The notes under the pieces were generated by a model, which was given only the letters and a program-made list of their open reading frames with translations, did no database searches and was not told where the DNA came from. The position numbers were made by a program, and so were the translations under genes. 64,000 bases of DNA from an uncultured Alphaproteobacteria bacterium (GTDB taxonomy: Bacteria > Bacteroidota > Ignavibacteria > OLB7), in assembly GCA_964455525.1 (NCBI GenBank), contig CAYVWR010000003.1, forward strand, positions 323,475 through 387,474, read 5' to 3'. Shown piece after piece: positions 1,287 through 59,085 of this stretch. Numbering within the stretch: position 1 is the first letter of the stretch; each line of letters opens with the position of its first letter.

Positions 1287-1313
1287 GCCAGTGGCTTCCG
1301 TGGCGAACATCCC

Positions 1314-38274: not shown

Positions 38275-38473
38275 GCGCCGGAATACCACTGCCGGGAGCG
38301 GCCGGGCGGAATACACCCGGTCGCTCCCGGCTTCGGATGGTCTATCGGTTATGCAGTCCGGCAGAGCATTCCCTGCGGCCATATCTACCAGAGCACTTCG
38401 ATTTTTGTCACCATCCCGCATCTATCCATCACGAATTTTTCACGTGGTCACCGCCACATTCTATGAAGATGTT

Positions 38474-41400
38474 ATGAGCAGTATTAACTCTTATTATCCG
38501 CCGCTATCTGCGCTTGCCGATATAAGCATAATTCCCCCTCAGCTTGATTTTATCGGGCATGCATTGAATTCCCTGCTCGATAGAATCTATTTCCGCGATC
38601 TGCAACATTCAACAAGCAGGGGCGGAGGAAGAGAATTCTATAGCCTTACGCTTCTGACTTATAGAAAGATCGGCATCGAAATTCCAGGAACCGGCATCGG
38701 CCTATATCTCAATCCTCCCGATCCTCCCGGCAGTGCCGGAGGAACCCTGTTCGGCACCGGCATTCCACTTACGCTGGAGTACGAATGGGGCATTGCCGAT
38801 CTGGTTCGTGGTTTCGACCTGGAGACGTTCAAGCCGGACCCGAAAACGCTGTTTGGCCTTATTGCCCGGACGATGAAGCTTGATACATCCACGCTTGCCG
38901 GGCAGGCGATCGCAGCATTTGCCGGCGGATCTCTGGAGTCCTTTATCGGCGATATAAATACGTGGCTCGGCAATGAAAACATCGAGCAGATTCTCTCCCC
39001 TGATGCCGGATTGAGCGATCCGGAAAAGATCGCCAACGTGATAGGGCAGATCGAGGATAATGCCGGAGTGCCGCTGCCGGAAGCTCTGTGGAATGTCTAC
39101 CTGAGTTCGACAGGAGATGCCGGCAACTCTGCCCCTGTCGATCAGTTGTTTCGGCCATTGCTCGGCGGAAAGTCGATGCTGGAGTACATCGGCGATCTGC
39201 TAGCCCCGAAGATCAATGCGTCGCTGCGTCTGAAAACACGCCTGGAATTTCCGCGAACAATTCTTAAGCCTCTTATCATCGAGCAGGGGCAACCGCATCG
39301 TGTCGATGAAAACCCCGAAGCCCGATCGACCCTCGACTTTGCCGAGGGGACCTTGTGTTTCAATACATCGAAGGGAATCGGTTTCGATGCCATGCTGGAT
39401 GCCACGCTGGTTCCGTCTCAGATCGGCGATACCGGGCTGACTCTCTCGTTCACCCAGGCCCGGCTGGACCTCAGTACCACGGCCAGCATACCGGAATCGG
39501 TGGCCGATGGCCGCGGCGAGGATTTTGTCGGCGTTTATATCCGGGATGCCGAGATCGGGCTTCCCGCATTCTGGCGGACAAAGCCAGATGACGAGCGGCC
39601 GCAGGATCTGAACCATCGCGCCAGGATCATCGGGCGAAATATTCTTATCGGCACCGGCGGGCTTTCCGGTTCCTTCAGCCTGCTGACAACCGATGATGAG
39701 CCGTTGCTGGAGACCCGCTTCGGCGCCACCGAGGGGGAACCCGGAAGCAGCGGATTCGGGATTGCACTCGATCGCTTCGATATTTCGTTTCATCAGGGAG
39801 CGATCGTCGGCTCGGATATTCATGGCACTCTGCGCCTGCCGGTCGGTGATGGAGATATCGCGCTCGGCGTCACCATCGCTGTGCATAATGGTGGCTTCAC
39901 CATCGCAGTGCAGCCCGATCCGCCGGTCAGCTTCGGGATGGATAATGTTTTTTCGCTGACAATAACAAAAATTGGGGTGGGAAGTCTCGGTTCCCGCTAC
40001 TACCTGGAGGCTGCCGGATCTCTGGAGATTCTCGCCGATCTGCCCGGCGTTGGAAGGATCTTCAAGCAGCCGATCGAAATCGGCACGGTGATCATCTGGT
40101 CCAATGGCGAGATCGATTTCCAGGGGGGAAGCTTCGTCCTGAATGAGGCGGTCAGGTTGGTCGCCGGCCCGGTCGATTTTTCGGTGACCGCAATCCATAT
40201 CGGAAGCGAGGAAGGCTACCATGCGGGGCACCGGAGACACTACAGATATTTCGGGTTCGATGGTGGGGTGAAAACCGGCATTGGCGGAGTGGATGCCCGT
40301 GGCGATGGCATCAAGCTCTATTATACTTCCGACAACACCCGTACGGGGCTGCCCGGGCATATCTATCTCCGTCTGGAATCAATCAAGGTAAGCCTGACGA
40401 TACCCGGCGATGCAACCGAGGAGAACGTTGCATTGATCTTGAAGGGATGGCTCTCGATGAAAAATCGTGCATCCGGCGAATCCGGCGGGGCCATCCCCGA
40501 ATACGCTGGCGGGGTAACCTTCTCGCTGCCGAAGCTTGGAACGGGTGGAGGAGCCAATCTGAAAATGATCCCGTCGATCGGTGCCTTCCTCGTCGATGCC
40601 AATCTGGAGTTTCCTTCGCCGATCCTTCTGGGGAGTACCGGTCTTGGCATCTACGGGTTGAACGGAATTTTCGGCAATAAATATATTCTTCGGAAAGGGG
40701 AGAACGAGCGCTGGTGGGAGTTCTACAGAAAGCCCGATCCTGGCGTTAACGTGCAGAAGTTCAGCCGGGCCGATGGGTTTGCAATAGGCGCGGGGGTTTC
40801 CATGGCTACGGCTGGTGACTCCGGCGAAGCATTCTCGAGCAAGCTGATGTTTATTCTTTCGATACCCGGAATGCTTGCGTTCGAGGGACGTGCTTCCATT
40901 CTGAGCACAAGGCTCGGGCTGAGCGGCGATGAGGACCCCCCGTTCTTTGCGGTCCTGTCGTTGAGCGAAATCGGGGTGGAAGCGGCCTTTGGCATCAATT
41001 ACCAACGCCCTCGCAATTCCGGCGATATTTTCAGCCTGAATGCCATTATGGAGCTTGGCTTTTTCTATGGGCGCTCCTCGGCATGGCACGTAAATATCGG
41101 CCGCGACGCGCCCGACACCATGCGCATCGGTGCATCCATGCTGAAGGTTCTCCACGGCAAAGGCTATCTGATGCTCGGATCAGGGGGCATCAAGGTGGGG
41201 CAGAGCGTGGAGTTCAAATTTGAACAGGATTGCGCGGTGGCAAGGGTGGGGCTGTATGCGGCGCTCGAAGTTGGCGGTCGTGCGAGCTTCCGTCCGCTTC
41301 AGATTGGCGGTTGGGGGCATGTAGGAGGCTACGCCGAGTTGAAGATATTCGGCTTTGGATTCCGTCTGAATGTGGATGCGTTTCTTATGGTGGAGGCACC

Positions 41401-44400
41401 ACGGCCGTTTGCCATCGCCGGAAGCCTCTCGCTGGGCGTTTCCCCACCCTGGCCATTTCCGGATGTGAACCTCAGTGTAGGGATCGGCTGGACGTTCAAC
41501 AACGAACGGAATATCGACGAAATAGGGTTTATCGGAGAACAGGAGTATTCCGGCAGCGATGCCATCGAAGCCTATGTGCAGCAGCGGGTTCATCCGGTGA
41601 AGGCAATACATATGATATCGGGAGAACCATTTCTCCTGAATTATGTGAATCATCATTATCCGGAACGGACCCGGCTCCCCTCCTTGCTGGAGGAAGCGCC
41701 GGAGATCCCCCCGCCGGACAGCGGATGGATAGGATCGTTCGACCGTTTTACGCTGCCACTGGACAGTTTCATCGATATAGAATTCAGCAAGGGGGTCGAT
41801 CCTGCCAGCATACGGAGGCTGGGGCCGATCCAGACCGGGAGAATCTGTGAAGAGCTGGTGCCGCCGCAAAAGGGGAGGGAGCAACAGGTGCGGCATCGTT
41901 ATGTCGTGGACTCCGTGTCGTTACACTACTGGTCGGCTTCGGCACATTCCTGGCAGGATTACACCATGGCCCAGGCGAACACGCCGCTGATCGACCTGCT
42001 GGTGGAGCAGGGGGCTGGCCGCAGCGAGGCGATAGCTTTGCTGGAGAGCCATCTGTACGATGGGTTCTGGCAGCTCAGCAATGCCAACTCCTATACCAGG
42101 CTCCGTATACTGGCCCGTTCCCCGCTTCAGCAGAATCCATCGGTGGAGCTTACCGAGCTTGGGTTCCCGGAGCGTGTGCTGGTCTGCCCTCCCCCGGAAC
42201 GTCCACTGCAATGTCTTGATTGGAACGATGTCCCTGTGGATACGGTGTATGATGCAGCGGAGAAGATATCGGATCGGAGGCTTCAGTACCGTATCTCTGG
42301 CTCTGCGGCAACGGTAAAGGCTGCCAGGAATCCTTTCGGGATGCCACACTCGCTGGTGCTGCCGGGGGGTGAGCAGATCGAGATACTATTCCCACAGCCG
42401 GTAACGAAGGTATCGATGAAGCTTACCGCACTGAGCGAACAGGTTGCCATCTCCTATTACCTGGGGTATCGGTATAACCCGGAGCCGGTCCGGCGTGCGC
42501 CTAACGGGAGCCGCATCGAGCGGTGGGAGATTTCCACGGCTGGCGGAGGAATGAATGATACTGCGGATGATCTCTGGGATAAGCTCCGCGCGATTCCAAG
42601 CTTCATTCGGGCCTTCTGTAGCGGACCCCTTCGACCAGATTCTGTAGCGGTAGCCGCCCTTGGCAGCATCATGGATCAGAAGTTCAGGACGACAAACGCA
42701 TATCTCCGGCGCCGGATGGGGCTGGAACCGGCCCAGAGTGCTGCCGGTTTCTGCGAACGCCTGAAAGAGATGCTGGAAACAGTTATCGTATCGATTTCCG
42801 GCAACACCCCCGCACCACGGTATCTACAGCCCAACCTGGAATATTTCTACAGGGATGCACGGCATTATGCAGGGAAGTATATCCAGGCCTTTATCGATGC
42901 TGGGGAGATGGTTCCCGAACCTCCCGCCGAACATAATGAGCTGTATGAGAAGTGGATGGATCTGCTTGCATGCGCCGGGAAACTAAGCCAGCATCGGGAC
43001 ATGTTGCCGAAGCATGCCCGGCCATTTATCCCAGGGATGATCGATCCCGCCGTTGCCTCCCTCTACATCGCTGCCCGCTCATCTGCCGGCCAGTGGGGCG
43101 TGGAGCTGAATCAGCCCACGGATATTACCGACCCTGTACACCGTGCCCGCTATGTTGCGGAGTTTTTTGCACGTGAAAGTCTCGACGTTGCTGTGAGTTC
43201 CAGGCTTGCGACGCTCTCCCTCTCGTTCGAGCGATTATTCGATGCTCTGGAATCGGCGCTGAAGAAGGTGCGGGCCATGCTGAAGTTCTCCAGAGAGGAT
43301 ATCTGCGGGGGGGCTGCCGGGAGTATCGTGGCCTACGGTGTCCCGGAAGCCAGCTATTCCGGATGCGGCGGCGCCAGTGGTTTTGCCGATATCATCACGA
43401 CGATCTGTATGGCCGGTGCTCCAGCCGAATCTCCGGCCCTCGATCGTATCTCCGCCCTGATCGATGAAGGCGTTTCCACTGTAGTTGCTATCGAGAATTA
43501 TTTCGGATGGCCTGATTCCACTACCGGGACCGATCTATGCTCCAAACTGCGCCGTACTCTGCGTGCGATTTCAGTGGCCTGTTCGGGGCTTGGTGCGCTT
43601 CCGGCTTCCCTGCGGTCCCGTGTGAGGAAGTTGTATGGAACCCTGCTGGTCCATCTCGGCGAATACCGGAAGGATACCAGAGGATTTGATCCGGCAGGGC
43701 CGGATGAGGCGATCATCACATGTATCGGACGGTGGTACGGCGCTCTGGCCTGTCTGTGCAGTTTATGCAATGATTTCGATGCACTACATGCTCAGGATGA
43801 AAGGCCGTACTTCATCAGCACCGTCGATCCCGAGCTTGATAGCTTGTACAACGCCATAGCAGGCGAGCTTGCGAGCGGGGACACCATCATCACCGGCAGC
43901 GGAGTTTCCAATGATCTCTGCGAACAGCTTTCGGTCATCGCGGTCTTTCTGAACGCCCTGGCCATGCGATGCGAGGATCCGATGCTCACGACAAGTGATA
44001 TGCTCGGCTGGCTCTCGGGGGAGGCAAAGACCGACTTTGCATCTGCGCACGCAGCTCTTACCGGACCGGGAGGGGCACTTGAGGAGTTCTCCACGATTTT
44101 CTGCGAGGGCACGGGAAATGGCAACTCCATGTCGTGGCTGCCGATGCTTGGGACTTTGGAGTGCCTCTATAGGCTCATCAGCAGAAGCGCATATCTGCCG
44201 CAGGATATTCTTGGCCGGATCAACGCTGATTTCAGCAACAACTCCAGCAACGATCTGAGCGACCCGCTTTATACCATTATGAAGAAGGTCTATCAGCCTG
44301 GTGTTGGTGATCCGGCCGATCCGCTGGTGCCATCGGCTCTGCCACCGGCCGAACAGAACCTTTATAAGCTGGATTATATCCTTCCCCGCCTTTATCTGAA

Positions 44401-47017
44401 GTCGCTTCAAGGAGAAGCCGTCAACGATCCGAATCATCCAGAATATCAGGAGATCGAGGCGATCGTTGCTGCGCTTGCCGATGAGATGGCCGATCTGAAC
44501 GATGCTCTGCTTGCTCTTCCGGAAGGAACACGGATTGATATCTGCCAGGTAGGACGCGGAGAAGGGCCGGAACGCGAGCGATCCTTGCTTGATATCTATC
44601 GCAGGCTCTGCGATGATCTCTCGCTGCCGTTGCAGGGAGCGCATGCAGGTGTGGCCACGGTGATCCGCAATGCCGGACCGGTCCTCGATGAGCTGGCCCT
44701 GGTGCTCGGCAGCGATCCTATACGGGATGCATGGCCCGATAGCGCCTTCTGCTCCGTAGTGCGTGAGGTCGTTCTTACGCTCGTTACGGCATATTCCTTT
44801 GCTGAGCATCTGTCGCCGGCTCTGCAAACAAAGCTGTACGATCTCTCGCGGGATCTGCTAGCGGCTGATACCTCTGTCTCTTCTCCCATGCTGAATCCCG
44901 GTTGCGAGCAGATCAGTGGTGAGTGGCTTTCCATGCTCCACTGTCTACGGGTGGCCTGCGTGTATCTGCCTCATCTTCCTGCCGGAATCAGAGAAGGGCT
45001 TGAGGATGACACGCTGCAGGATGCGATGGGCACACAGATCCGGAGGTTATACCGGAAGGTGCTTCTCTGGGGAGATCAGTTCGCTATGGCTACCGGCCCC
45101 GGACGTAGCACCACGGACCGATGCCGGAAGGTGCAGCTTATCACCAATTATCTGACGGGGGCGATCATCGATTTCGATCCCCGGAATGCCGACAATCGTA
45201 TCGGTCTCTTCGATGCCCACCAGACGCTTGTTACGGCGCTGGAGGATGCAGTGCTGGTGGATGCTTTGAACCGGCTCTGCCCGATTCCGGGGGATGGACC
45301 GTATGATCCATTGAAAAAACGGGAGCGAAAAAGCCGGGTGGAGCTTCTACGAGAAGTACGCTATGGTTTCAGCGGGGAGCCAAGCCCGATCGACCGTATC
45401 GTAATAGCACCGGCTGTGGGGTGCGATCCAAACGATCCTATCGACTGGAGTGCGGTTGTCGCTGAAATACACCAGATCCTGGGCGATGCCGCTGCCAGCC
45501 AGGAAGAGAAGGATGCGCTGGCAGCTTTTGTGCCCGATATGCAGGAGCTTTCATCGGAGCCGTGCAAGACCCTGATCCACCAGATCTGCTGGCAGACGCA
45601 GGCCGATCATGACTATAACAACGATCTGCCAGACGAGGAGATCGTCAGAGAGACCACAAACGATATCATCATCGGGCTGCGCGATCTGAACCAGCCCATC
45701 TGGCGCCCCAATACGATCTATGCAATACAGATCGCGACATCAGAATATGTCGATAACCATGCGATCCCATATCGCCGATTTCTAACGTACGGGTTCAAAA
45801 CCGCAGGCCCGATCGGGCATTTTCATGAGACAGGTAATGAAGTTCCGCCTCTGTACAACCAGAGTTATCAGGAGCTTCTTCAGGCGGAGAGGGAGGACGA
45901 ATTCAAGTATGCGGACCTGAAGCTCTACCTCGATTATCCCCGTTGTTATCCCAATGCCGATGGAAATATCATCGGTGCAAAACCACTGTATTATGCCAGC
46001 GCCACGCTTTCACTGTTTTATCTGAAAGATTACGTTGCGGCGATGTACGGCCGGTGGGATACGTACGGAGATCTGCCTGAGGTGCGCTCAGGACTTCAGG
46101 TGGTTGTATATGACCAGGGCATGCAGAAGGATAAGATTACCGGAGAGGCCGGAAAAATTACTGTCGATCCCGTCTGGAAGCCCGATCTGAACCCGCCAGT
46201 GGAAAAGGAATTCGAGGTGTTCAGATATATCATGAATGCCGACCCGCAGAGCAATTGCCTGGAGTTCGAGCTTTTTGCCGAGGATGCTCTGCCGAAAGCC
46301 AAACAAACTACGGTGCCGGTTGGCGTCGCATTGGAACCGCAACGGCTCTATACAGCGATGTTCAACGCCGTTCTGGAGGAGGGTGTAGGGCGAACCTATA
46401 GCCGTCCGGTACATAAATATGTATTCCAGACCTCTCGTTACCCGAACTTCGAGCAGCATATCAGGAGTTGTATTCTGAGTGTTGAAGGGGAAGCCGAGAG
46501 AACGGCCATTGTCCGGATCAAGGTGCCATCGCAGAAATCCGTGTTGCTTTCCCAGGTGCTCCTGGATGATTCTTCCGTGGAGGTGCGGGAGTTGAACAGA
46601 GAGTATGGTGATCCGCTCGAAAGGGTCATCGAAGGTGCGCTTGGGTTGAAAAATCTTCCTCCGGCTCTAACCAACGAGTTCATCATTATCAATGAGGAGG
46701 GGGGAGGGATCATCGGGGTTCTGGTCAGAAGCCCTGAACCGCTCAATGATCCGAAGCTTCCGATCGAGCAGCTCGGCCTGGGGCTTCAGACCGAAGGGTT
46801 CGGCTCTGCTCCCGTACTGGTTTTTTCAAAGGATGTGACCAGGGCATTCGTGACTGGCTTTATGAGCGGGGCGGATGTGGGGGTCGCACCGGGAATTCTA
46901 ACGTTCGTCTTTACGTACAGGCTCTTTAACGGTACGGAGTTCGCCCAGGTGGAGGCACCGCAGAATGGGCCGGCAACAAGTGTAACCATCACATTCGATA
47001 CACAGAGCATTCCCTGA
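38474..47017 (+). CDS. Giant protein (~2,848 aa) of unknown function. The C-terminal half carries Cys/Trp repeats of the type C-x2-W-x2-L-L-x-C-L-x3-C.
   Basis: Uninterrupted ORF. Example motifs: ITCIGRWYGALACLCSLC, SMSWLPMLGTLECLYRLI and ISGEWLSMLHCLRVACVYL. Start taken at MSSINSYY. Confidence 0.65.
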   Translation: MSSINSYYPPLSALADISIIPPQLDFIGHALNSLLDRIYFRDLQHSTSRGGGREFYSLTLLTYRKIGIEIPGTGIGLYLNPPDPPGSAGGTLFGTGIPLTLEYEWGIADLVRGFDLETFKPDPKTLFGLIARTMKLDTSTLAGQAIAAFAGGSLESFIGDINTWLGNENIEQILSPDAGLSDPEKIANVIGQIEDNAGVPLPEALWNVYLSSTGDAGNSAPVDQLFRPLLGGKSMLEYIGDLLAPKINASLRLKTRLEFPRTILKPLIIEQGQPHRVDENPEARSTLDFAEGTLCFNTSKGIGFDAMLDATLVPSQIGDTGLTLSFTQARLDLSTTASIPESVADGRGEDFVGVYIRDAEIGLPAFWRTKPDDERPQDLNHRARIIGRNILIGTGGLSGSFSLLTTDDEPLLETRFGATEGEPGSSGFGIALDRFDISFHQGAIVGSDIHGTLRLPVGDGDIALGVTIAVHNGGFTIAVQPDPPVSFGMDNVFSLTITKIGVGSLGSRYYLEAAGSLEILADLPGVGRIFKQPIEIGTVIIWSNGEIDFQGGSFVLNEAVRLVAGPVDFSVTAIHIGSEEGYHAGHRRHYRYFGFDGGVKTGIGGVDARGDGIKLYYTSDNTRTGLPGHIYLRLESIKVSLTIPGDATEENVALILKGWLSMKNRASGESGGAIPEYAGGVTFSLPKLGTGGGANLKMIPSIGAFLVDANLEFPSPILLGSTGLGIYGLNGIFGNKYILRKGENERWWEFYRKPDPGVNVQKFSRADGFAIGAGVSMATAGDSGEAFSSKLMFILSIPGMLAFEGRASILSTRLGLSGDEDPPFFAVLSLSEIGVEAAFGINYQRPRNSGDIFSLNAIMELGFFYGRSSAWHVNIGRDAPDTMRIGASMLKVLHGKGYLMLGSGGIKVGQSVEFKFEQDCAVARVGLYAALEVGGRASFRPLQIGGWGHVGGYAELKIFGFGFRLNVDAFLMVEAPRPFAIAGSLSLGVSPPWPFPDVNLSVGIGWTFNNERNIDEIGFIGEQEYSGSDAIEAYVQQRVHPVKAIHMISGEPFLLNYVNHHYPERTRLPSLLEEAPEIPPPDSGWIGSFDRFTLPLDSFIDIEFSKGVDPASIRRLGPIQTGRICEELVPPQKGREQQVRHRYVVDSVSLHYWSASAHSWQDYTMAQANTPLIDLLVEQGAGRSEAIALLESHLYDGFWQLSNANSYTRLRILARSPLQQNPSVELTELGFPERVLVCPPPERPLQCLDWNDVPVDTVYDAAEKISDRRLQYRISGSAATVKAARNPFGMPHSLVLPGGEQIEILFPQPVTKVSMKLTALSEQVAISYYLGYRYNPEPVRRAPNGSRIERWEISTAGGGMNDTADDLWDKLRAIPSFIRAFCSGPLRPDSVAVAALGSIMDQKFRTTNAYLRRRMGLEPAQSAAGFCERLKEMLETVIVSISGNTPAPRYLQPNLEYFYRDARHYAGKYIQAFIDAGEMVPEPPAEHNELYEKWMDLLACAGKLSQHRDMLPKHARPFIPGMIDPAVASLYIAARSSAGQWGVELNQPTDITDPVHRARYVAEFFARESLDVAVSSRLATLSLSFERLFDALESALKKVRAMLKFSREDICGGAAGSIVAYGVPEASYSGCGGASGFADIITTICMAGAPAESPALDRISALIDEGVSTVVAIENYFGWPDSTTGTDLCSKLRRTLRAISVACSGLGALPASLRSRVRKLYGTLLVHLGEYRKDTRGFDPAGPDEAIITCIGRWYGALACLCSLCNDFDALHAQDERPYFISTVDPELDSLYNAIAGELASGDTIITGSGVSNDLCEQLSVIAVFLNALAMRCEDPMLTTSDMLGWLSGEAKTDFASAHAALTGPGGALEEFSTIFCEGTGNGNSMSWLPMLGTLECLYRLISRSAYLPQDILGRINADFSNNSSNDLSDPLYTIMKKVYQPGVGDPADPLVPSALPPAEQNLYKLDYILPRLYLKSLQGEAVNDPNHPEYQEIEAIVAALADEMADLNDALLALPEGTRIDICQVGRGEGPERERSLLDIYRRLCDDLSLPLQGAHAGVATVIRNAGPVLDELALVLGSDPIRDAWPDSAFCSVVREVVLTLVTAYSFAEHLSPALQTKLYDLSRDLLAADTSVSSPMLNPGCEQISGEWLSMLHCLRVACVYLPHLPAGIREGLEDDTLQDAMGTQIRRLYRKVLLWGDQFAMATGPGRSTTDRCRKVQLITNYLTGAIIDFDPRNADNRIGLFDAHQTLVTALEDAVLVDALNRLCPIPGDGPYDPLKKRERKSRVELLREVRYGFSGEPSPIDRIVIAPAVGCDPNDPIDWSAVVAEIHQILGDAAASQEEKDALAAFVPDMQELSSEPCKTLIHQICWQTQADHDYNNDLPDEEIVRETTNDIIIGLRDLNQPIWRPNTIYAIQIATSEYVDNHAIPYRRFLTYGFKTAGPIGHFHETGNEVPPLYNQSYQELLQAEREDEFKYADLKLYLDYPRCYPNADGNIIGAKPLYYASATLSLFYLKDYVAAMYGRWDTYGDLPEVRSGLQVVVYDQGMQKDKITGEAGKITVDPVWKPDLNPPVEKEFEVFRYIMNADPQSNCLEFELFAEDALPKAKQTTVPVGVALEPQRLYTAMFNAVLEEGVGRTYSRPVHKYVFQTSRYPNFEQHIRSCILSVEGEAERTAIVRIKVPSQKSVLLSQVLLDDSSVEVRELNREYGDPLERVIEGALGLKNLPPALTNEFIIINEEGGGIIGVLVRSPEPLNDPKLPIEQLGLGLQTEGFGSAPVLVFSKDVTRAFVTGFMSGADVGVAPGILTFVFTYRLFNGTEFAQVEAPQNGPATSVTITFDTQSIP

Positions 47018-47152
47018 CCGGGCATAGATGTTATGGAGCGGTGGTATCCCATATGCCACCGCTCTGCACGCCCGTGCTTTACAGGTGCTCCAACGTGGAT
47101 AAGGCCGCTATCGGCCAAGTAAGAGCTATCACTTCATATTATCATTCTTATT

Positions 47153-50100
47153 ATGTCGCAACAACAATCGATAGTGTTATCGTTCAGCAATATTGAATAT
47201 CAAGGCGGATTTGTCGGAAATAACTTCACCATCACTATACAGGTGGCTGCTGCGCGAAGTGGTGGCGGATCTCTGGGAACCGAATCGACACTCATCTCGT
47301 TGCCGATCACACAAGACACAAACCTGGACCATTACAGGATCGCAATGGCGGTGCCGTATCAACCGGCCGTAACCACCATATTTACTGTAGATATTAGCAT
47401 AACCGGCACCGGATCAGGTGCCAGTTCGAGCGGAAGCGCACAATCATCGATTCCGCTTTCGGCTGGCATATCCAGCCGTAGCGATGTCATTGCCGTTCCG
47501 GTTGCCAGAACCGGTGGGGGGCCTGGACCCGGTCCCGGCGGAAATGCAATCCTCAAGCTTTCCTTCGACACGATCGTTCGGGATGCGCCAGTCTGTTACC
47601 GGATGGATTGGCTGTGCCAGACCCGGAACACCATCCCTGTTGTTATGGGCTGGCTTTGCCAGGGAACCGGTTTCACCGTATCCCCCGATGGTCCTGCATT
47701 CTCTGGCCTGCAATCGGTGATCGAACTGGATGCCCTTCTCAAGAAACATATGCCCGGTCTGAACTGGCTCAACAGCCAGCTTTCCCTGGGATACTCTCCT
47801 ACAGGCCCGGATATGATGGGCCAGGCCGATTACGCCACCAGTATAACGCTTGCTGCAGCCCCCCAGGCCATGAGCCTGTCTTTGAGCCAGGCTCATGGCC
47901 TGAGCGGATTTTATCAGGATTTTACCACAAAGATAGGGAATTATGCTGGGGAGGTCTATCACCGGCTTCCCCAGCCTGAGCCGACTCTCTGTGCAGCGTG
48001 GCAAACCCTGCTGAACTGCTTTTGCAGGTTTTGCACTACTATGTCCGACTATCCAAGCCAGGATGTTGATCTCTGGACAAATCAGGCTGCCGGGGTGGTG
48101 CACGATGCCTATCAGGAGTTCGTACTCATCGCTGCCGCCGAGGGGATGGCGTATGCCATAAACCCGAATATCACCGATATCTGCGGAAAACTTGCTGAGC
48201 TTGTCGGGTTCTGGGCCTGGTGGTGCAGGAATTGCCCACGTCTCCAGATCACCTGGGGAAGTACCGTTCAGCCATATTATGATAGCCTTTATTCCATTGC
48301 TTCTCAAATGAGCTTCTGGGATGAGGCGGATCAGTTCGATTTCTGCGAGCCTCTGGCAAAGGGTCTTTGCGAGCGCTGGTTTGCCGGACTTGGATGTATC
48401 GAGCGCTTATGCGATCGGATGGACTATCTGCCGGGAACTGTCCTTACCACTCTCGAAAATTCATTCGGTGCGATACTCTACGCCGCGCTCTACGGGGTGG
48501 AATATAATCAGACCTCCTCTCAGGGAACCAGCTTCTGTTTTCAGATCGAGCGTCTGAAGCTCTATCTGGGATTGGTCTGTAGCAGCGGATCTATCCTTGG
48601 TGATGATCGTAGAGAAGAACTGGAAACTCTGATCGGCCAGCTCGAAGATGCCTACGGCAGCTTTCCCTACAGGAATCTCTGTGCCGAGGTGGACTGCGCG
48701 GAGTGGAGCCGCATTCTCTCCTGTCTGAATAGGATCTGCCAGAGAAAATCGGAGCTTTCGTTGAACGATGCCATCTGGCTGAGCGATCATTTCGCGGAGA
48801 TCGTTGATGATCTCTATTATGCGGTGGAGTCGCTGATGACACCGGCAACTCCTCCCTCTTCCGGAGGGAACGGGCTGGAGCTGATGTGCTGGAAGCTGGA
48901 TCGTATCGGTGGGTATGTCGAGGCCATCTGTTGCAGCGGGGAACCGTTCGATCCGGTCCTGAACGCACGTCTTTCCATGTTTCAGAGCGCGTTTGCAGAT
49001 TTGAATCTGCATGCTCCCGGAATCTGCGCCGATTGCGACCGCTGGCTTCCGATGCTGGAGTGCCTTGGCGCGATATGCGACAACAAGGGGATGGTGCCAC
49101 CGGATCTCGCCGAAAGCATCGCGGAGCTTTTCAGCCCCCCGATCCATGCCATCTATACATGGCTGCCGGATGATGGGAGCAACGAGGTGGCGCCGCCGCT
49201 GGAACCGCTCGGGCTTGATCCTCTCTGCTGGCGCTTGCAGAAAGTGCTGGCATGGTTCAACGATCTCTGCGCTGGTACCGAGGTGATGGATCCGGTGCTT
49301 CGGCAGAATCTGGAGGCTGCTCATTTCACTCTCACGGTTGCATTCGACGCGCTTGGGGAGGTAGAGAAGTGGCGGAATATCTGTGACCAGACCTCTGCGG
49401 TTTCGGGAGAATTGTGCGCTCGCTGGGTTCCGCTGCTCGCCTGTTTGCATGCTGCATGTGGCAATGCTCTTCTTCCATCGGCCATGCGGGATGCCATCCT
49501 GGCGGAGTTCGGGGAAATAATCGATCTGCTGGATTGGCTGCTTGGCACCCCGGATGGGTATTACGAGCCTCCGATTGAGATATCGATGAGCGATTTCTGC
49601 ATGAAGCTGGCTCGGGTACAACAGAAGATACATCAGATTTGTTCCAATCAGATCGCGGTCCATCCGATACTTCTGCTACGTCTGGAACATGAGCTTGAAC
49701 ATGCGCTGCCTGCCTTCAACACGCTTCTGGCTGCATATCCCAGTATCTGTGCAGGGGAGGAATTCTGTCACGACTGGATGCGTATCCTGGAATGCCTGTC
49801 GCGGTTGTGCGGCCAGCAGAATCTCCTCGGCGGGGATCTGATAGCACGGCTGATAACAAATTTCGGCAAGATCATCCATGACGCCTATCGCCGCGTCATG
49901 GGGCAGGAGCCGGAGGTGATCCCTGGTTATACCATCGAGATCCTCTGCTCCGATGCAAGTGCTCTGCTTGAGTGGTTTGTAGACTATTGCGGATGCGGAG
50001 TTGGGATAACAGCCGGGCTGAGAGATGATCTGAGCGTCTATCTCGCCCAGCTTCAACTTGCCTATGATGGCCTTCATCCCTGCAAGAGCGATTGTGCCAC

Positions 50101-53100
50101 TACCTCGGTCGATCTGACAACCGGAACGCAGCCGGGCGGATATAAGGTGGACTGGATCATCACCGATACCAGCCTTGCCATATCTCTTCCCCGCCCTGCT
50201 ATCGATATCGATGGCCCATCGGCGCCATACCAGGGTTCGGCGTGGGTTTTTGCTGTTGGCGATGATGTTCAGGTGCCGGATGGTATGACGATTCTGGATC
50301 GGTACTTCTGCCTGCGGGACGCTGCGGATATCACGGTAGATCTCCTCTTCCAGGCCAGTGATCCGGTGTTGATCTGGATCAATGACCAGCTCCTGGTCGA
50401 TCTTCTCGACGAAGGTTCGATTGTCAGGCAGACGGTTCATCTCGCCGCCGGCCGACATCGGGTAAGGGTGAAGGTGGTGCATGCGGTGCCGGGATATCAT
50501 AAGGGGTTTAATGCCCAGGGAAGTATTACCACCTCGTTGCCTGCTCTGGTCAGGGATGAGTGCTGCGATGCGATGGGAGCCTCCGTGCCCGGCACACTGC
50601 TGAAAAAACTCTGCTGCGATTCCTGGATCGACTGTGGCAGGCTCTATGAATTTTCGGCCCTTGCCAGGATTCTCTGTGGTGCCAGCCGCGAGCCGAACGA
50701 CCCGTTCTTCGATCTCCCTTCGATAGGGGTGGCCAATACGCTGATGGTGGATTTTGAAGCGACGACGCTACAGGATCTGCTCGTGCTTCTGGAGATCAAT
50801 GGCAATCCGCCGCTTGGGATCGAGCCGGTCGGCACCGGCTTCTGCGATCGTCTGAGGTTCATTCTGCAGAATCTGATTTTTGCCTATTCCAATCCTGCGC
50901 TGCTGACACCGTTGCTGCGGTACAGGATCGAATGTTTTTACACCAGGTTGCTCGATGGCATTGCGGCTGATGCCGAATTGTTGATCGACCCACCGGCCGA
51001 CTGCTCTCCCTGCGAGGATATCTGTCTCAGATGGCTCGATCTGCTGCGCTGCCTGTGCGCCCTCTGCGCCGATGAAGAATCGGTGGCTATCGGGTTATTT
51101 GAAACACTGGTATGCGGAGCCAATGGTCTCTATAATTATCTCTATCCCGGCGGCTCTGCCGTGCCGGTTCCGGTATATCCTGTGCCATATCCGCCCGAGG
51201 CGCCCGTTACCTGCTGTGATATAGTGCGGAGAACCTATACGTTCTTTGCCCTCCTCTGCCTGGAGTGCGGGAGCGTTCCGGCGGATATGGCCGCTGAGTT
51301 GGAACTTCGCTACGCTGATTTTCATGCCCAACTCCAGGTGCTCCGTGCCACATCACAGGGAACTGCTCCCGATCTCTGCTATGACCGTTGCGGCTACTGG
51401 CAGCCGAAGCTTGAATGCCTGATGAATCTCTGCCTGCGGGTTCCCGATCTGCCGAGCGATGTGCGCGATGCCTTTGGCGATCTGCTCAGCAGGCATGTGA
51501 GGCCGCTGTTCGATCTGCTGCGTGGAGAGGCTTCCTTCGATAATCCATTTGAGCCTCATGTCATAGGCGATACCTGCTGGCAACTGTTCCAGATATGCCG
51601 GATGATGCATCTGCATTGCTCGCCGCTGAATCTATGGTCGCGCGATCTGATGCAGGAGATTGATGGGTTTCGGCATGCGTTCGATGCCGACTATGCCGTC
51701 GTTATGTCATTGCTCGGAACAAAGGATATCCCCGCATGTTATTTCAGAGACCGATCGTGCGAAGTTCTGCAGGCGATCCCGGATTTCTATCGTCTCTTCT
51801 GTTCCGATGTGCCCGATCTACAGCATATGCCTGTCAGGCAGCTCGACACCTTGACGGCCGGGCATGGGCTGGAAATACGGATGCTACAGTATCATACGGG
51901 CGCGCCGAACACGGCTTATCAAACAGCCGGAGGCTTCTGCCAGCGATTCGGTTCGTTTCTGGGGATTCTTGCGGCGGCATTCGGACACTATGGGCAATTG
52001 GCTCCGGCGTACAGGCTTGCTGCCGACCTGCTCTACACTGCCGTGGATATCCTCGCTGCCGAGTACCGCATGCTGGTACCGGAACGAGTCGTCCCGGCTT
52101 CTACGGCGATGAGCCGGTATCGCGATACATGGCTGGATCTGCTCGGCTGCCTCTGTGCGATATGCGGATATGTGAAAGGGCTGAGCGATCAGGAGAAAGA
52201 GACACAGGAGAATCAGGAAATCCTTTCCTATTTCGATCCTGTGTCGGCTCTGATGATGGCCGTCGATGAGCTGTATGATGGTATCGTGCCGCTGGCAGCT
52301 CAGCATGATCTGCCACTCCCTTCCGGGATCTGTGTTGCAGGGGATGGCTGCACGCGTGTCGGGGGGGCCATGAGCTTTTTCTCCATGCTCGGCCTTTCCT
52401 CGGCAGATGTGCCAGCCGACCTTGTGGCTCTGCTGAAAAGCATTCTGAAGGATCTTAGAGAAGAGATCGCGCCACTTCGGGGGTATCTTGCCAGCATCGG
52501 ACGTGATCTCTGCCGCCAGGAGAATCCCGACTTTGTCGCAGTGCAGTCGTCGCATCTGTACATCCAGGCGGCGGGGTCCACCGGCGCCGATGGCAGCTCC
52601 CCCGGAATTCATCTTCGTTGGAGTCTGCTGGGAGAAGATCTTGGGGAGCGTCATCTTCCAAAGGGAAATCTGGCATCTCCCGGTTCCGAATATTATGGGG
52701 CGAATGGCTATAACAAGGCCGGTGATTTTGTGCGAATCTACCGGACCCCATATAAGCAGAAGTTTGCGGCCATCATCGATCTCAATGAAACGATGCCGGT
52801 GGCGGTCATTCCGGGGAATGCCTATACGCCGTGGCGGCTGGACTATCATGATATCCTCACCGATCCTCTCTTTCCCGATTCCGGGACGACGGTAGGGCTG
52901 CTTCTGTTGGACCCATACGCCGGGTCGATCGAGATACCCGAGCCGGGGTCGCCCGATTTTACGGAGTATGTGCAGGATATCTTTGCAACGTATAACGGCG
53001 CATTTGAACTTGATACGCCGCTCAAGCTGATATTTGGTTTTGAAGTCATACCACCACATTCTGCTACAGGAATATCGACACAGTTCGAGGCCATCTCCCA

Positions 53101-56100
53101 CATCGGTGATCCGAGCCTCCATTCTACTGATATTCTTACCTGCCGGAAGACGATCGCCGAAGGGGATAAACCGCATAAGATCTACAGCGAGCATATCCGA
53201 TCGGTGCGCTTCAAGCCTGTCAACTATAAGCCGGTACAATTGATCGTCGAAACATATCACGATTATCATACGGCAATCAAACGCCGATTCCTCTGGGAGC
53301 ATATCGGTGATTTTGGGCTTTCCACCGATACCGGCGAGGTATTTCGCCGTCTGGAGGATGCGCCGAGATATGTGGTGCACAACCGCTGGCCGAAATATTC
53401 TTCATCGGACAGCAGTTCCAATGAAGCTACGCCGCAGAAGGTGAATGTCGATACGTACAAGGACCGATGGAGTCCGAATCGTGAGTTCTTGCCGAACGGC
53501 GATCCCAATCCCGGTTATGATCCGGCGCGTCCGGATTATCTGCGCGATCCGCAGCAGTCGCTTCGCTGGGCCATCGAAACGTATCTCGATGAAAGCCGGG
53601 ATCCGGCAAAACTTGAGGCCTGGATCGATCAGCCATCGCTTGGAGATGGCGATCAGAGCTATATCAGCATCAGCCTTCTTGCCATGCTCCGATTCGCGGC
53701 CCAGGATTATCATGTTGCCCGCATGCTTGGGCTGGGCCATATCGATTGGGAGGTTCCGATGCAGCAGGATTCATCGGAACAACAATATGTCTATCTGGCG
53801 GAGTATATAACGCTGCCGAACAGCACCATGCCAAATTCTATGATACACCGGTCGCTGTCGCTCCCCACGGGGCGCTCCGATCATCGCCTCCCGGTAACGC
53901 CGGAGATTCTGAACCTGGAGCCAGGTCTGGCATCCGATCTTACCGATGAGCAGGGATATACACGGTTCGGTGACAGCCGTTTTATCAAGGTCAACCGCAA
54001 GGATCTGATGTTCGATCTTCCGGCCGTAACCGAATTTTTTGCAGGGACGGAGGAGTTCAGCCGTGGTGATAATACTCGTCCGGTATTCTATGGGGTGAAA
54101 TTCAGCGTCAAGGACCCTGCCGATCCTACCGTATGGATGATTGATCCGAGCAATGACGCCGGAGAAAATCCGCCCATCGGATACAGGCCATACAAGGACC
54201 CGGCCGGCGAGCCGGAAATCATACCAGTTCCCGATACAGGGAATCCTCTCTTTATCCACAGAATAGAGCGGCGTGAAGAACACACCGGAGTTCATCGCTA
54301 CGGCATGTATGGCATCAACTGGTTTTCGCGTGCCTCTGCTGTCAGCGAAAGCACCAATACGGTCGAGAATACATTTCCTGTCAGGAATACTCTGCTCCCT
54401 CCATTAAATCTGACGGCGCAGTATATCCAGAAGGAGCAGGCACTGATGTTCACCTCGGCAGCCGAGCAGAACCCGGTAAACGGCCTTCTCGGAAAATCCA
54501 GGGTTACGTTCGACTGGAATCATATCCATACTATCGCCTATCAGGAGGCGGAGTATGTGGATTTCTATTTCCGGAATACCGCACCGGAGATGATTAAAGG
54601 AAGGGTGAAGTATGTGGAATCCGCGCTCGATGGAGCCACTGCCAGAGTGACTCTTGAAGCATACCAGGAGTCACAGGGAACGATCATCGATCCAAACGAT
54701 CCCGATAAGCCGGTTTTCCAGAATCCAGATCGTTTTGTCGGTGGTATGTTCGTTACAGATCAACGGAAATATATCGTCGCGGATATCATCCTGGTTCTCT
54801 CCGGGCCTGCTGCGCCGGTTGCCGTCTTCGAGCTGCAAGGTGTTATGGAGGCTACGCCGGATGGGCCTCCAGGTGCAATGCTTCCGGTGCTTCCGGTTGC
54901 CGGGACGATTGTGGTGATTCAGGAAAATGCTTCCGCTTCCTCCCGGTGGACCGCTCTTCCGGAGAACCGGATCAAGCTGGCGAGGTTCAATATTGCTCCA
55001 TATGCCTCGGGCACTTCTGGTTCGCCGACAGCGCTCTATAGCGAGAGCATCCGGGAGAATGACAGGTATGTACGGTATGCGATGGGAGGGCTGGCCGACC
55101 CTGCTGTATCGGTGCAGCGGGATAGCACTCCCGGTATGCTGGAGAATATCTTTACCCTCACATTTTCCAGCGCAGTGCTGTATCCATACAGTGCCCAGTT
55201 CCCTGAGTACTCCAATGTCGATTTCTATAAGGGGACTGCGCGTGTTCATCTGCCGGATGAAGGCGTACGGCAGGTGGAGGTCCTCAAGATCCATTCATAC
55301 GATCCTCTGGTTCTGTATGTATACGATCCAGAAGGAGAAATTGCTCCACAGAACGGAAGTGTCATCAGGTCTGTCAATTTCCATCCATCCTACAGGGTCT
55401 ATCTCGATCTGGGGGCGGATGGCATAACGACTGATGATATTGAGCCGCAGGGGGGAGCGCAGACCAGGACGACATTGCTTGCAGCACGTTCGGTGGATAC
55501 CACCACCTGCGCCGGGGCGATCTTCAGGTCGCCGCTGGCTACCGCCCCGCATAGCGCACGTTTGATGATCGAGGCAAAGACGCCGAACGACCCGGTTGGG
55601 CCGGAGTTTGCCACGCGCCCCGATTATTACGGCAAATCGACCTATACGTTTGACACCCGTATCGCTCTGCGGCCGGTGATGGAGCCATACGGCATGATGT
55701 TCTATCGGTGCGATGAACAGGCAGTTCTGGCAGCGTTATATACAAGTGCCACCATCGCGGAGATAGGTGCCGCCCTGGCTGGCAGGGAGGGGGAGGCATC
55801 GTACGCCGACCGGTGGAGGGGGCTTGTGAATGGAACCCTTGTCGGGGGAGCATTCGAGATATTCGATGGCTACGGATTCCCGCTTCCTGATAATCCGGAT
55901 ACCTTTATCCCTACTCCCGCAAATCCGTCAACCCTGCGCTACCCCTTTCTCTCTGGAACGCCAACCGCAGAGGACATCCGGGATGTGATCGATACTGTGT
56001 TCCTTCCGCTGACGGAATATCCCGTTATCGTGGGTCTGGTCGGGATTGATGATACCCTTCGGACATCGAGCAAGAAGCCGGTGATACGGAAGGATGACCC

Positions 56101-57007: not shown

Positions 57008-57331
57008 AGTAGCTCTCCGCATCAGGCACCCGCATGCTCGGTTGGTTCCCGATGTCGATATCAGAACCGCTTCGATCCATCCAATGGCCGGGGCGGTTCT
57101 TCATTGTATCGGCGTTCGCCCGGCTGTAGCTCTGCTCTTCATGGCTACAGCCCTTCGGTTCATGCGGGCAGATTCAACGGTTCAACAATGTTTTCATAGC
57201 TTGAGGGCTGGTGGCTTCTTGAAGAGACCGATGTACGGACTACTGTGCATGAGGGCACTTCCGGCAGACTGGTGCCGGCCGCGGCACATCGTTTCCCTGG
57301 CAATATTCAAACCCTAATCGTCGATACAACA

Positions 57332-58864
57332 ATGAGTGGTACTACCTCCCAAGCCCGGACGCTCGGTGAATTGAAAGCCTCGGGGTATAAGATCCTTCCG
57401 GTCAAGGATGAGATGCGGAAGAATATCATCCGCAAGCTTCGGAACCGGGAGACGCTGTTCCCCGGCATCGTGGGGTTCGACGAGACCGTGATTCCACAGC
57501 TTGTCAATGCCATCCTCGCCCGGCATGATATCATCCTGCTCGGGTTGCGCGGCCAGGCCAAGACACGTATTGCCAGGTTGCTGCCAAATCTTCTGGATGA
57601 GTATATCCCGATCGTGGCCGGCTCCGATATCAACGATAATCCATATATGCCCGTGAGCCGCTATGCTGCCGAGATCATCCGCGATCGGGGCGATGATACC
57701 CCGATCGAGTGGATTCATCGTTCGGAGCGCTACGGCGAGAAGCTTGCGACGCCCGATGTAACCATTGCCGACCTGATCGGCGATATCGACCCTATCAAGG
57801 CGGCCAACCAGCGTCTTACCTACTCGCACGAGGGGGCGATCCACTTCGGCATCGTGCCGCGTACGAACAGGGGCATCATTGTTATCAACGAGCTTCCCGA
57901 TCTTCAGCCTCGTATCCAGGTGGGCCTGTTCAATATCATGCAGGAAAAGGATATCCAGATCCGAGGGTTCAACGTGCGCATGCCGCTCGATATCGCCATC
58001 ATCTTTACGGCAAACCCGGAGGATTATACCAACCGAGGTTCCATTATCACACCGCTCAAGGATCGTATCGATTCGCAGATCCTGACGCACTACCCGCGCA
58101 CGCTGGAGGATGGGATGCTTATCACCCGCCAGGAGGCCTGGCAGGTACGCGAGGCCGATGGAACGCTGGTGATGCCGAAGTATATGGAGGAGATCGTCGA
58201 GATGGTGGCGGTGCAGGCGCGGCAGTCCGAGTTTGTCGATCAGCAGTCCGGCGTATCAGCACGTATGACCATTGCGACGATGGAGTCGCTTATCTCGAAT
58301 GCTGAACGCCGTGCCATCATCAATGGCGATGATGCGGTGGTGCCAAGGATCATTGATATGCAGCAGGCCCTGCCGGGAATTACCGGCAAGGTGGAGCTGG
58401 TGTTCGAGGGAGAGCAGGAGGGGACCGCCAAGGTGGCCCGGCTTCTTGTGAACAAGGCCGTGCGCGAGGTCTTTGCGCTGTATTTCCCGAACCCGCTTGA
58501 GCGTCCTCGCCGTTCCGGTGAGAAGGGAGCCGCACCTCCGGCCGATCCCTATGCCACGATATTGAAGTGGTTCGGAGAGGGCAATACGATCGATCTGGAT
58601 GATATGATGGCGTTCGATGCCTACTATCGTGAGCTGGAGCGGGTTCCTGGGCTACGCGATCTCACGGTTCAGTATCTCGGCATCTCCCCATCGAATCCGT
58701 ATGAGCTTGCCACGGGGATGGAGTTTGTGCTCGATGGATTGCATCAAAGCTCGAAGATCGCAAAGGAAGAGTTTGTCACACATACAAGCTACAAGGATAT
58801 GCTCGGCGCGATCTTCACATCGAAACGTGGCCGCCCGGACGATGAGGAGGAGAACGAGTTCTGA
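57332..58864 (+). CDS. BchI/ChlI (Mg-chelatase I subunit)-like AAA+ ATPase with non-canonical Walker A and Walker B motifs and an extra ~200-aa acidic C-terminal domain.
   Basis: Alignable by eye to BchI: FPGIVGFDETVIPQLVNAIL (against F.AIVGQEE.K.ALLL), GLRGQAKTRIARLLPNLL (against GDRGTGKST.IRALA.LLP), NRGIIVINELPDL (against NRGILYVDEVNLL), and arginine-finger region FTANPEDYTNRGSIITPLKDRI (against GNPEEGELRPQLLDRF). Confidence 0.7.
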   Translation: MSGTTSQARTLGELKASGYKILPVKDEMRKNIIRKLRNRETLFPGIVGFDETVIPQLVNAILARHDIILLGLRGQAKTRIARLLPNLLDEYIPIVAGSDINDNPYMPVSRYAAEIIRDRGDDTPIEWIHRSERYGEKLATPDVTIADLIGDIDPIKAANQRLTYSHEGAIHFGIVPRTNRGIIVINELPDLQPRIQVGLFNIMQEKDIQIRGFNVRMPLDIAIIFTANPEDYTNRGSIITPLKDRIDSQILTHYPRTLEDGMLITRQEAWQVREADGTLVMPKYMEEIVEMVAVQARQSEFVDQQSGVSARMTIATMESLISNAERRAIINGDDAVVPRIIDMQQALPGITGKVELVFEGEQEGTAKVARLLVNKAVREVFALYFPNPLERPRRSGEKGAAPPADPYATILKWFGEGNTIDLDDMMAFDAYYRELERVPGLRDLTVQYLGISPSNPYELATGMEFVLDGLHQSSKIAKEEFVTHTSYKDMLGAIFTSKRGRPDDEEENEF

Positions 58865-59033: not shown

Positions 59034-59085
59034 TATCGTGCCCTGAATCTCGTGCCCTGATACGGTTGTGATGGCCGGTAAGAGA

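Follow-up and report, generated by a model that had tools for sequence, protein, structure and literature searches.

The question raised by this locus is what a Cys/Trp motif (C-x2-W-x2-[ML]-L-x-C-L-x3-C) repeated in two adjacent giant genes represents, and what the protein units that carry it might do. The window, a 64,000-nucleotide stretch of DNA, contains three giant genes, P1, P2 and P3 (Table 1). The arrays in P2 and P3 are real, and more extensive than first noted. All eight copies reported for P3 were located by regular expression, at aa 283, 518, 631, 758, 875, 1294, 1416 and 1660, as were the three reported for P2 (ORF aa 1795, ~1938 and 2192); to these can be added a ninth P3 copy, WFAGLGCIERLC, at aa 409, and a fourth P2 copy, WMDLLACAGKLS, inside the module at aa 1463-1573. 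With the module bounds in both proteins finally set after HMM iteration, the P3 array (aa 215-1795) comprises 10 full and two half modules, and the P2 array four clear and three to four degenerate ones. The earlier note had placed the start of the feature at 43720; as a whole it begins further 5' and runs from approximately nt 42560 to 52537. An HMM of the P3 modules finds no copy in P1. The true start of P2 is likely to be Met41 (nt 38471), giving 2848 aa, and the long start of P3 is adopted because the orthologues support it. In the AlphaFold2 model, P2 aa 41-1240 is dominated by long beta hairpins. The C module of P3 is homologous to the third protein (~1450 aa) of the short-form system.

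Table 1. Features of the three giant genes and their Cys/Trp arrays (aa numbering for P2 is that of the ORF).
Feature	Residues (aa)	Position in window (nt)	Strand	Remarks
P1, first giant gene		30223..38274	+	Peptidase_S8 and Peptidase_C15-like region; conserved partner of P2 and P3
P2, second giant gene		38351..47017	+	ORF of 2888 aa
P2 N module	41-1381			beta-rich; followed by the Cys/Trp array insert
P2 array	1404-2299	42560..45247	+	mid-protein, where the P2 family is variable
P2 module	1463-1573	42737..43069	+	E 1.7e-21; Cys at c6 and c75 only
P2 module	1724-1836	43520..43858	+	E 2.2e-25; includes WYGALACLCSLC
P2 module	1853-1964	43907..44242	+	E 3.9e-12; includes WLPMLGTLECLYRLI
P2 module	2129-2237	44735..45061	+	E 4.1e-18; includes WLSMLHCLRVAC
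P2 weak partial copies	1404-1445, 1591-1655, 2033-2103, 2254-2299
P2 C module	2405-2868
P3, third giant gene		47153..57007	+	3284 aa
P3 proximal block	215-976	47795..50080	+	modules 1-6 and half-module 7
P3 modules 1-6	215-322, 337-443, 455-558, 578-671, 688-793, 811-915
P3 half-module 7	928-976
P3 within-array insert	977-1223	50081..50821	+	non-helical
P3 distal block	1224-1795	50822..52537	+	modules 8-11 and half-module 12
P3 modules 8-11	1224-1331, 1348-1456, 1470-1569, 1591-1710
P3 half-module 12	1729-1795
P3 C module	1792-3284	52526..57007	+	without Cys/Trp modules

The strict expression matches P3 eight times; when the Cys-rich region itself was shuffled 5000 times, the average was 0.0012 matches. 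An HMM built solely from P3 modules matches P2 with an E-value of 9.7e-36, whereas 200 shuffled versions of P2 gave 0.9 at best. There are no significant DNA-level repeats between 43000 and 53000. Pairwise identity between modules is only 16-31%; the duplications are therefore old.

The module measures ~105-120 aa, not the ~130 aa first proposed, and is a duplicated ~55-aa helical hairpin, ~110 aa in all (hhalign probability 95.5%, E 1.4e-8). The suggestion that it is a helical-hairpin module agrees with AlphaFold2, which predicts four helices per module, arranged as two homologous hairpins, and non-helical linkers between modules; confidence in the three-module model is moderate (pLDDT 72.5, pTM 0.41, alignment of 12 rows). 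As for the LC.W.L opening, its Cys (75%) and Leu (61%) hold, in the form [FL]-C-x-[RK]-L, whereas its Trp is found in few modules only, and the 'DPVL' said to follow is weakly conserved (Pro ~30%). A near-invariant tryptophan, Trp69, lies in hairpin 2. The conserved cysteines, spaced C-x13-C, C-x7-C and C-x8-C-x4-C, belong to the opening helix of each hairpin or to the loop before it, hence to helices 1 and 3 or the H2-H3 loop; they occupy flanking positions of the heptad (e/g), which do not line the core. Modules have 4-7 cysteines; in nine of them C6 and C75 are the only ones. Four-Cys classes (C6 or C66 with C75, C77 and C80) and six-Cys sets both occur, and in two module classes the number of conserved cysteines is odd, at seven. 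Concordance of co-occurrence is 81% for C58-C66 and 79% for both C6-C75 and (C20 or C77)-C80, and C20 and C77 are mutually exclusive. No disulfide pairing based on helix geometry and Cys co-occurrence was fully consistent: C6-C75 and C20-C80 could not both form directly between two straight helices and there are seven-Cys classes, so that a scheme of three disulfides purely within the module is not established. There is no conserved His or catalytic-looking residue at any module position, and His is outside the top three residues at all 108 positions across 159 modules.

The orthologues support the view that the cysteines are functionally important: no other residue comes close to them in conservation in either array, 50 of 78 cysteines being conserved in P3 and 17 of 26 in P2. 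Across the P3 array (11 orthologues, 32-37% identity) conservation is 64% for Cys, 23% for W, 12% for R and at most 8% for any other residue; in the P2 array it is 65% for Cys versus 7% for all positions, and 18% in the flanking modules. Module number varies from 9 to 12 in P3-like and from 4 to 6 in P2-like orthologues, and P3 module 5 is present in this protein only, among 11 orthologues. Such variation fits a spacer. Fixed cysteines and one fixed tryptophan, in a sequence that otherwise drifts, make an unusually clean signature of a new domain family.

The Cys/Trp module is a new domain family, albeit of a known general kind. The earlier note did not recognise a described repeat family, and Pfam, NCBIfam, PHROGs, PADLOC and PDB sequence searches likewise gave no match, the library scans covering P2 and P3, 13 single modules and 11 orthologues. 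Foldseek comparison of the three-module model with the PDB gave nothing below E 0.6, and sequence and profile searches of the PDB gave borderline matches only (the designed bundle m4D2 at E 0.007 and thioredoxins at E 0.003-0.9). The family was recovered by an exhaustive profile search; word-index searches, whether queried with P3 or with the alignment of its family, returned only two proteins, a limit of the method. Worldwide, only some two dozen proteins with such modules are known, and the family is restricted to a pair of giant partner proteins in a single bacterial lineage. The array family is not treated in the giant-gene preprint 10.1101/2023.11.21.568195, and the literature searched makes no mention of DUF6603.

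The proposed origin by domain shuffling is supported on two counts. The P2 array is collinear with a stretch containing the distal P3 block (E 2e-59), and homologues of P2 and P3 that have no arrays are widespread, at 200+ Bacteroidota loci. In other lineages, the P2 array site is occupied by ConA-like lectin, IgGFc-binding or TSP_C domains; the arrays are therefore lineage-specific block additions, and the swapping of such domains at this site argues for an exposed position used for binding or display. A gene resembling a phage tail fibre lies just downstream at 28 short-form loci and at none of 15 array-bearing loci, a difference that is confounded by phylogeny. A phage origin was rejected, tblastn giving no match among 50,697 phage records to the N module of P2 or the C module of P3; a scan of IMG/VR for the P2 family was also negative. 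The 707-aa protein, AAA_5 ATPase and 407-aa protein encoded nearby were ruled out as components of the system by their non-conserved adjacency, as they stand beside P2/P3 at none of 85 loci; the 707-aa protein is unrelated to a 712-aa Flavobacterium neighbour.

What, then, might the arrays do? We favour, with moderate confidence, a Cys-cross-linked, length-variable structural arm of the three-protein system over an enzyme. Each module consists of two tandem ~55-aa helix-loop-helix hairpins, hence four predicted helices, with a frame of cysteines on the first hairpin helices (C6...C20 in hairpin 1; C58, C66, C75/C77 and C80 around Trp69 in hairpin 2). Pro-rich linkers of 10-20 residues connect the modules, ~12 in P3 and ~7 in P2. 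The arrays were added as blocks at peripheral, swappable positions, N-terminal in P3 and in the variable middle part of P2, and both proteins belong, with the P1 protease giant, to a conserved system widespread in the Bacteroidota. The cysteines would cross-link the helices, disulfides being favoured and metal-thiolate sites possible, and the array, presumably extracellular or otherwise exposed, would be a beads-on-a-string arm, stiff and adjustable in length, by which binding surfaces are spaced or presented, the putative beta-sandwich insert of P3 included. This insert is possibly PA14/lectin-like: Pfam PA14 scores 13 bits (cut-off 24; E 0.094) and lectin matches are also weak, and a Pfam scan at E<=0.05 recovered PA14 in none of the 11 P3 orthologues. 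A signal peptide, T9SS C-terminal domain and other export signals were looked for in P2 and P3 and none was found; an oxidising location is therefore something that we infer rather than observe.

The Helicobacter cysteine-rich proteins and Sel1-like repeats are disulfide-bridged alpha/alpha repeats, tandem helical hairpins in which conserved pairs of cysteines are thought to staple the helices, and the bacterial proteins that contain them act outside the cytoplasm. The Cys/Trp modules are likewise tandem helical hairpins whose cysteines may staple the helices, and P2 and P3 would also act outside the cytoplasm; however, the Sel1 unit is ~36-44 aa long, as opposed to a ~55-aa hairpin and ~110-aa module here, the spacing of the cysteines differs, and Sel1 repeats form a continuous solenoid whereas the modules are predicted to be discrete bundles with linkers. 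No Pfam Sel1 or TPR match was found in P2, P3 or the 13 single modules.

It is possible, if doubtful, that the modules are instead metal- or cluster-binding or redox-active thiol modules, using 4-6 cysteines for Zn, Cu(I) or Fe-S, or shuttling disulfides. On this view an array would serve in the cytoplasm as a metal store, sensor or redox relay and would not be a passive arm. The lack of an export signal on P2 and P3 suggests a reducing compartment, in which disulfides are unlikely; some module classes do have sets of four or six cysteines, and the best fold match, DinB/YfiT, is a superfamily linked to metals and thiols. Thiolate-lined four-helix bundles that store Cu(I), the Csps, are known (PMC10155185), and Csp1 and Csp3 share with the module a Cys-bearing four-helix bundle of similar size. 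Added to this is the thioredoxin/PDI-like motif of P3 module 2, IVxFWAWWCRxC...P.W...Y, kept in nine of 11 orthologues; it is the one module with a WCxxC sequence (FWAWWCRNC). The family profile weakly matches each of the three Trx domains in TXNDC5 (E 0.0033; per-domain E 1.5), and module 2 gives weak profile matches to the active-site regions of TXNDC5, Eps1p and Trx1. Module 2 nevertheless fits the helical-module HMM (E 9e-26) and its neighbours are predicted to be helical; the thioredoxin alpha/beta fold is not seen, Pfam Thioredoxin reaching at best E 0.027 in one module, and the motif is probably mimicry or chance. In Csps, 13-19 cysteines line the core and are found on all four helices, and the proteins are single-domain; here the modules form arrays, and the 4-7 cysteines of each bundle are on two of its four helices and the H2-H3 loop, in flanking positions. 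Nine modules have two cysteines, which is not enough to form a metal site; C66 and C80, on a single helix and separated by 14 positions, cannot share one ion; and His/Asp ligands are not conserved. Models for DUF326/Csp, zinc fingers and Fe-S proteins gave no match. A scaffold also explains a variable number of modules and fast-diverging surfaces better than does a stoichiometric metal store.

A more elaborate scheme, which we consider rather unlikely, is that the Cys arm of P2 and that of P3, which are collinear, zip up with each other by means of intermolecular disulfides or of metal ions that bridge them, with module 2 supplying the WCxxC. The zipped arms would be the reach or target-binding appendage of an undescribed apparatus of three giant proteins, and in the Kapaibacteria they would replace the separate tail-fibre-like protein of the Flavobacteriia. 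Were this true, the arrays would be a new thiol-based functional element and not an inert spacer.

It is very improbable that the modules are divergent DinB/YfiT-type enzymes, akin to thiol S-transferases and repeated many times. The predicted module does have a DinB-type four-helix-bundle fold and its best fold matches are DinB/YfiT bundles, a superfamily that includes DinB, DinB_2, DUF664 and MDMPI_N (PDB 6iz2, 2hkv and 1rxq; EgtB N-domain). However, these are single enzymes of ~150 aa with a metal-binding His triad, whereas the modules occur in arrays of 7-12 in giant proteins, have short loops, lack the triad and conserve Cys and Trp. Pfam DinB, DinB_2, DUF664 and MDMPI_N match none of the 13 modules (E<=5), are not found in whole P3 or P2 (E<=0.1) and are not found in the 11 orthologues; Foldseek gave nothing significant, and convergence is easy for four-helix bundles. 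Finally, the reading that the motif arises by chance or from a Cys- and Leu-rich composition, or that it belongs to a known repeat family (HEAT/ARM/TPR/Sel1 or CHCH), is refuted: helical repeats with hydrophobic heptads are a generic architecture, and a Sushi-repeat Cys-rich protein, P0133, appeared in a profile search (E 3.9e-5), but shuffles gave almost no matches, modules and cysteines are kept in orthologues at 32-43% identity, Pfam repeat families do not match, the C-x13-C and C-x8-C-x4-C spacings lie on the first hairpin helix only and its preceding loop, unlike the twin Cx9C (or Cx3C) arrangement, which occupies both helices of a hairpin, and P0133 fell below significance once the HMM was refined. 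As a candidate member of the family P0133 (655 aa), a Sushi-like Cys-rich repeat protein, is a false positive.

The arrays expose a wholly uncharacterised, conserved three-gene system, present in the genomes of >200 Bacteroidota species, that comprises an S8/C15 protease giant, a beta-rich giant and a third giant, and at the variable sites of which lectin-like domains, tail-fibre partners or Cys modules interchange. If the modules are disulfide- or metal-stapled bundles, they would provide a compact, designable building block and a handle on the function of this giant system.

The Cys/Trp repeat shared by the second and third of three adjacent giant genes (P1, P2 and P3) is real. All of the motif copies listed in the earlier note were found in the sequence, along with additional ones, and the strict motif occurs eight times in P3, compared with a mean of 0.0012 in 5000 shuffles of the Cys-rich region. 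That the motif is common to P2 and P3 was borne out by an HMM built only from the modules of P3 (helical units of ~110 residues), which matches those of P2 with an E-value of 9.7e-36; the best of 200 shuffles gave 0.9. Cysteine is concentrated in residues ~100-1800 of P3 and ~1400-2400 of P2, and makes up 2.56% of P3 versus 0.48% of P1, in which a scan for modules found none. With boundaries drawn from an HMM iterated on 25 family members, the array of P3 (residues 215-1795) comprises ten full and two half modules, and that of P2 (ORF residues 1404-2299) four strong and three to four degenerate ones. Identity between modules is 16-31% and no DNA-level repeat was found in the array region; the duplications are thus old.

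Positions of the genes and segments discussed (window nucleotides)
Feature	Position	Strand	Description
Biosynthesis cluster	1-24600		large; polysaccharide or O-antigen type
Direct repeat, copy 1	25045-27869		2825 nt
Direct repeat, copy 2	27916-30740		2825 nt
707-aa gene, copy 1	25154-27277		signal-peptide protein
Truncated P1 5' end	27352-27891		ORF
707-aa gene, copy 2	28025-30148		signal-peptide protein
P1	30223-38274	+	2683 aa; Peptidase_S8 domain and Peptidase_C15-like region
P2	38351-47017	+	ORF of 2888 aa
P3	47153-57007	+	3284 aa
Thioredoxin/PDI-like segment	~48191-48292	+	P3 aa 347-380, module 2; active-site look-alike, IVxFWAWWCRxC...P.W...Y
Insert splitting P3 array	50081-50821	+	P3 aa 977-1223; non-helical, Cys-poor
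AAA_5 (MoxR-like) ATPase gene	57245-58864		3' of P3
407-aa protein gene	59068-60291		3' of P3; unknown family
Zinc-ribbon/TPR ORF	60669-61661	-	double zinc-ribbon and TPR domains

The cluster encodes three GT4 glycosyltransferases, an AsnB-like amidotransferase, an initiating sugar transferase, E1 dehydrogenase subunits, a PglD-like acetyltransferase, an epimerase, a FemAB/GNAT-like protein, a GHMP kinase and a heptosyltransferase; two identical 707-aa genes and then the giant genes follow. The two copies of the direct repeat are perfect, with a period of 2871 nt, and each holds one 707-aa gene (the two are 100% identical) together with ~518 nt from the start of the P1 ORF, which explains the truncated P1 5' end between the two 707-aa genes. 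Either the tandem duplication took place very recently or the repeat is an artefact of the assembly. The true start of P2 is probably Met41 of the ORF (nt 38471, not 38351), giving 2848 residues, as in the earlier note. Public gene calls start P3 at 47345 and so miss its first 64 codons (3220 aa); orthologues keep Met1, Gln5 and Gly18 of the longer ORF, supporting the tabulated start.

Alignment of 159 full modules to a 108-position model (whose numbering is used here) places cysteine at positions 6 (75%), 20 (41%), 23 (19%), 58 (58%), 66 (70%), 75 (83%), 77 (33%) and 80 (76%), and tryptophan at position 69 (80%). The helical hairpin proposed earlier was examined by AlphaFold2, using P3 modules 4-6 and a 12-row alignment of in-register three-module segments; the prediction (pLDDT 72.5, pTM 0.41) has four helices per module, separated by non-helical linkers of 10-15 residues. 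The two halves of a module (helices 1-2 and 3-4) are homologous (hhalign probability 95.5%, E 1.4e-8), pairing C6 with C66, L9 with W69, C20 with C80 and P27 with P87, so that the basic element is a helical hairpin of ~55 residues with a C-x13-C frame on its first helix. There are two main cysteine patterns, one of six (C6, C20, C58, C66, C75, C80) and one of four (C6 or C66, with C75, C77 and C80). C20 and C77 are mutually exclusive, occurring together in one of the 159 modules, and the highest presence/absence concordances are C58-C66 (81%), C6-C75 (79%) and C20 or C77 with C80 (79%); in nine modules, C6 and C75 are the sole cysteines kept.

In both arrays, the cysteines are by far the best-conserved residues. 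Amongst 11 P3 orthologues (32-37% identity; conserved meaning at least 10 of 11), 50 of the 78 cysteines in residues 200-1795 are kept, together with 23% of tryptophans, 12% of arginines and at most 8% of every remaining residue. Across 12 sequences of the P2 array, 17 of 26 cysteines are conserved as against 7.4% of all array positions; the figure for the flanking N and C modules of P2 is 18%. In the arrays, therefore, the Cys/Trp scaffold is fixed while the surfaces change fast.

The suggestion that no described repeat family accounts for the motif has held: Pfam, NCBIfam, PHROG and PADLOC models did not match the modules, PDB sequence searches gave nothing convincing and Foldseek found no significant match in the PDB. 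There are conceptual parallels in Csp copper-storage bundles (PMC10155185), Sel1-like Hcp repeats and CHCH hairpins, but the modules fail on a defining feature of each. The description that suits them best is that of a new Cys/Trp four-helix-bundle repeat family within the known 'Cys-stabilised helical repeat modules'.

The HMM search that had been proposed was run with a profile made from 13 modules of the window, against a set of 1.84 billion representative proteins. The 25 hits are P3-like proteins of 3043-3220 aa with 8-11 modules, P2-like proteins of 2633-2881 aa with 4-5 modules, and fragments; one outlier, the Sushi-type protein P0133, is a false positive. Amongst 231 loci with P3 relatives (one genome per GTDB species), a full-length match occurs only in Kapaibacteria-type MAGs (including Ca. 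Kapaibacterium, Kapaibacteriota, 'Chlorobiota' and unclassified Bacteroidota bins), which often have two or three paralogous loci each. All other loci, including those of Flavobacterium, Chryseobacterium, Pedobacter, Mucilaginibacter, Saprospiraceae and Kordia, align to P3 residues ~1797-3280 only, and this array-free short form is found in >200 Bacteroidota species genomes. Of 85 loci, 82 have P2-like genes beside the P3-like ones, and P1-like sequence lies 5' of them in every locus with a long enough flank. P1 (a giant with S8 protease, PA0049_N and C15-like regions), P2 and P3 are a conserved three-gene unit (30223-57007; loci L001, L003 and L005-L017), a system that seems not to have been characterised. 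The only Pfam family touching P2 relatives is DUF6603, of which no mention was found in the papers searched; a beta meander of great length is predicted for the N module of P2. The 707-aa, AAA_5 ATPase and 407-aa genes are not conserved partners in the 85 loci; the latter two, found beside P2/P3 homologues in none of them, are probably unrelated neighbours. A phage-tail-fibre-like gene of ~311 aa lies ~100 nt downstream of the homologue of the P3 C module in 28 loci of the short form (e.g. L004, 23260-24798), and in Flavobacterium loci a tail-fibre assembly chaperone and a CHAP lysin are also nearby. The tail-fibre-like gene is missing from each of the 15 loci with arrays, and neither P2 nor P3 relatives were found in 50,697 phage genomes or IMG/VR.

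A domain-shuffling origin, as first proposed, is supported by these array-free homologues and by the collinearity of the two arrays. At L005, the short form consists of an S8/PA0049_N/C15 giant and proteins of 1959 and 1456 residues; the third aligns to P3 residues 1792-3284 (32% identity) and the second to P2 residues 41-1381 and 2405-2868. It follows that the P3 array is an N-terminal addition and that the P2 array occupies a variable stretch in the middle of its protein. In other lineages this region holds ConA-like lectin, IgGFc-binding, or TSP_C and ConA-like domains (P0056 aa 1432-1544; P0072 aa 1311-1576; P0106 aa 1529-2214), which marks it as a domain-swapping hot spot. The whole P2 array is collinear with P3 residues ~775-1795 in profile-profile alignment (E 2.4e-59 over 821 columns, with a lower score for the second-best register), and shares with P3 modules 8-11 the class order four-Cys, six-Cys, degenerate, four-Cys type. 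This agreement supports block transfer or duplication between the adjacent genes.

The most economical reading is that the arrays would form a structural, modular arm cross-linked through cysteine, to which we give about an even chance. An enzyme or a stoichiometric metal store fits less well than an exposed scaffold because conservation is Cys-only, because module number varies (module 5 is unique to the P3 of the window), because the linkers are Pro-rich, and because the arrays occupy domain-swapping sites, filled elsewhere by lectin-like domains, and that of P3 embeds a putative beta-sandwich insert. This 247-residue insert, which breaks the P3 array, may be a carbohydrate-binding domain displayed on it, given its weak matches to PA14 (E 0.094) and lectins. 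A simple disulfide model is opposed by three observations: no export signal is recognisable in P2 or P3, seven cysteines are conserved in some module classes, and helix geometry does not allow all of the best-correlated cysteine pairs to link the same two helices directly. For these reasons metal-thiolate or redox-active modules, though less likely in our estimation, are a serious rival. Redox chemistry would also be favoured by the thioredoxin/PDI-like segment of module 2, an unexplained lead: nine of the 11 orthologues keep FWAWWCxxC...P.W...Y, and all three thioredoxin domains of TXNDC5 are weak matches to the P3 family profile (E 0.0033), as are Eps1p and Trx1, although the segment sits within a module matched by the helical-module HMM.

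The Cys/Trp repeat is explained by no described family, and its arrays were added as blocks to two partner giants of a seemingly uncharacterised Bacteroidota system.
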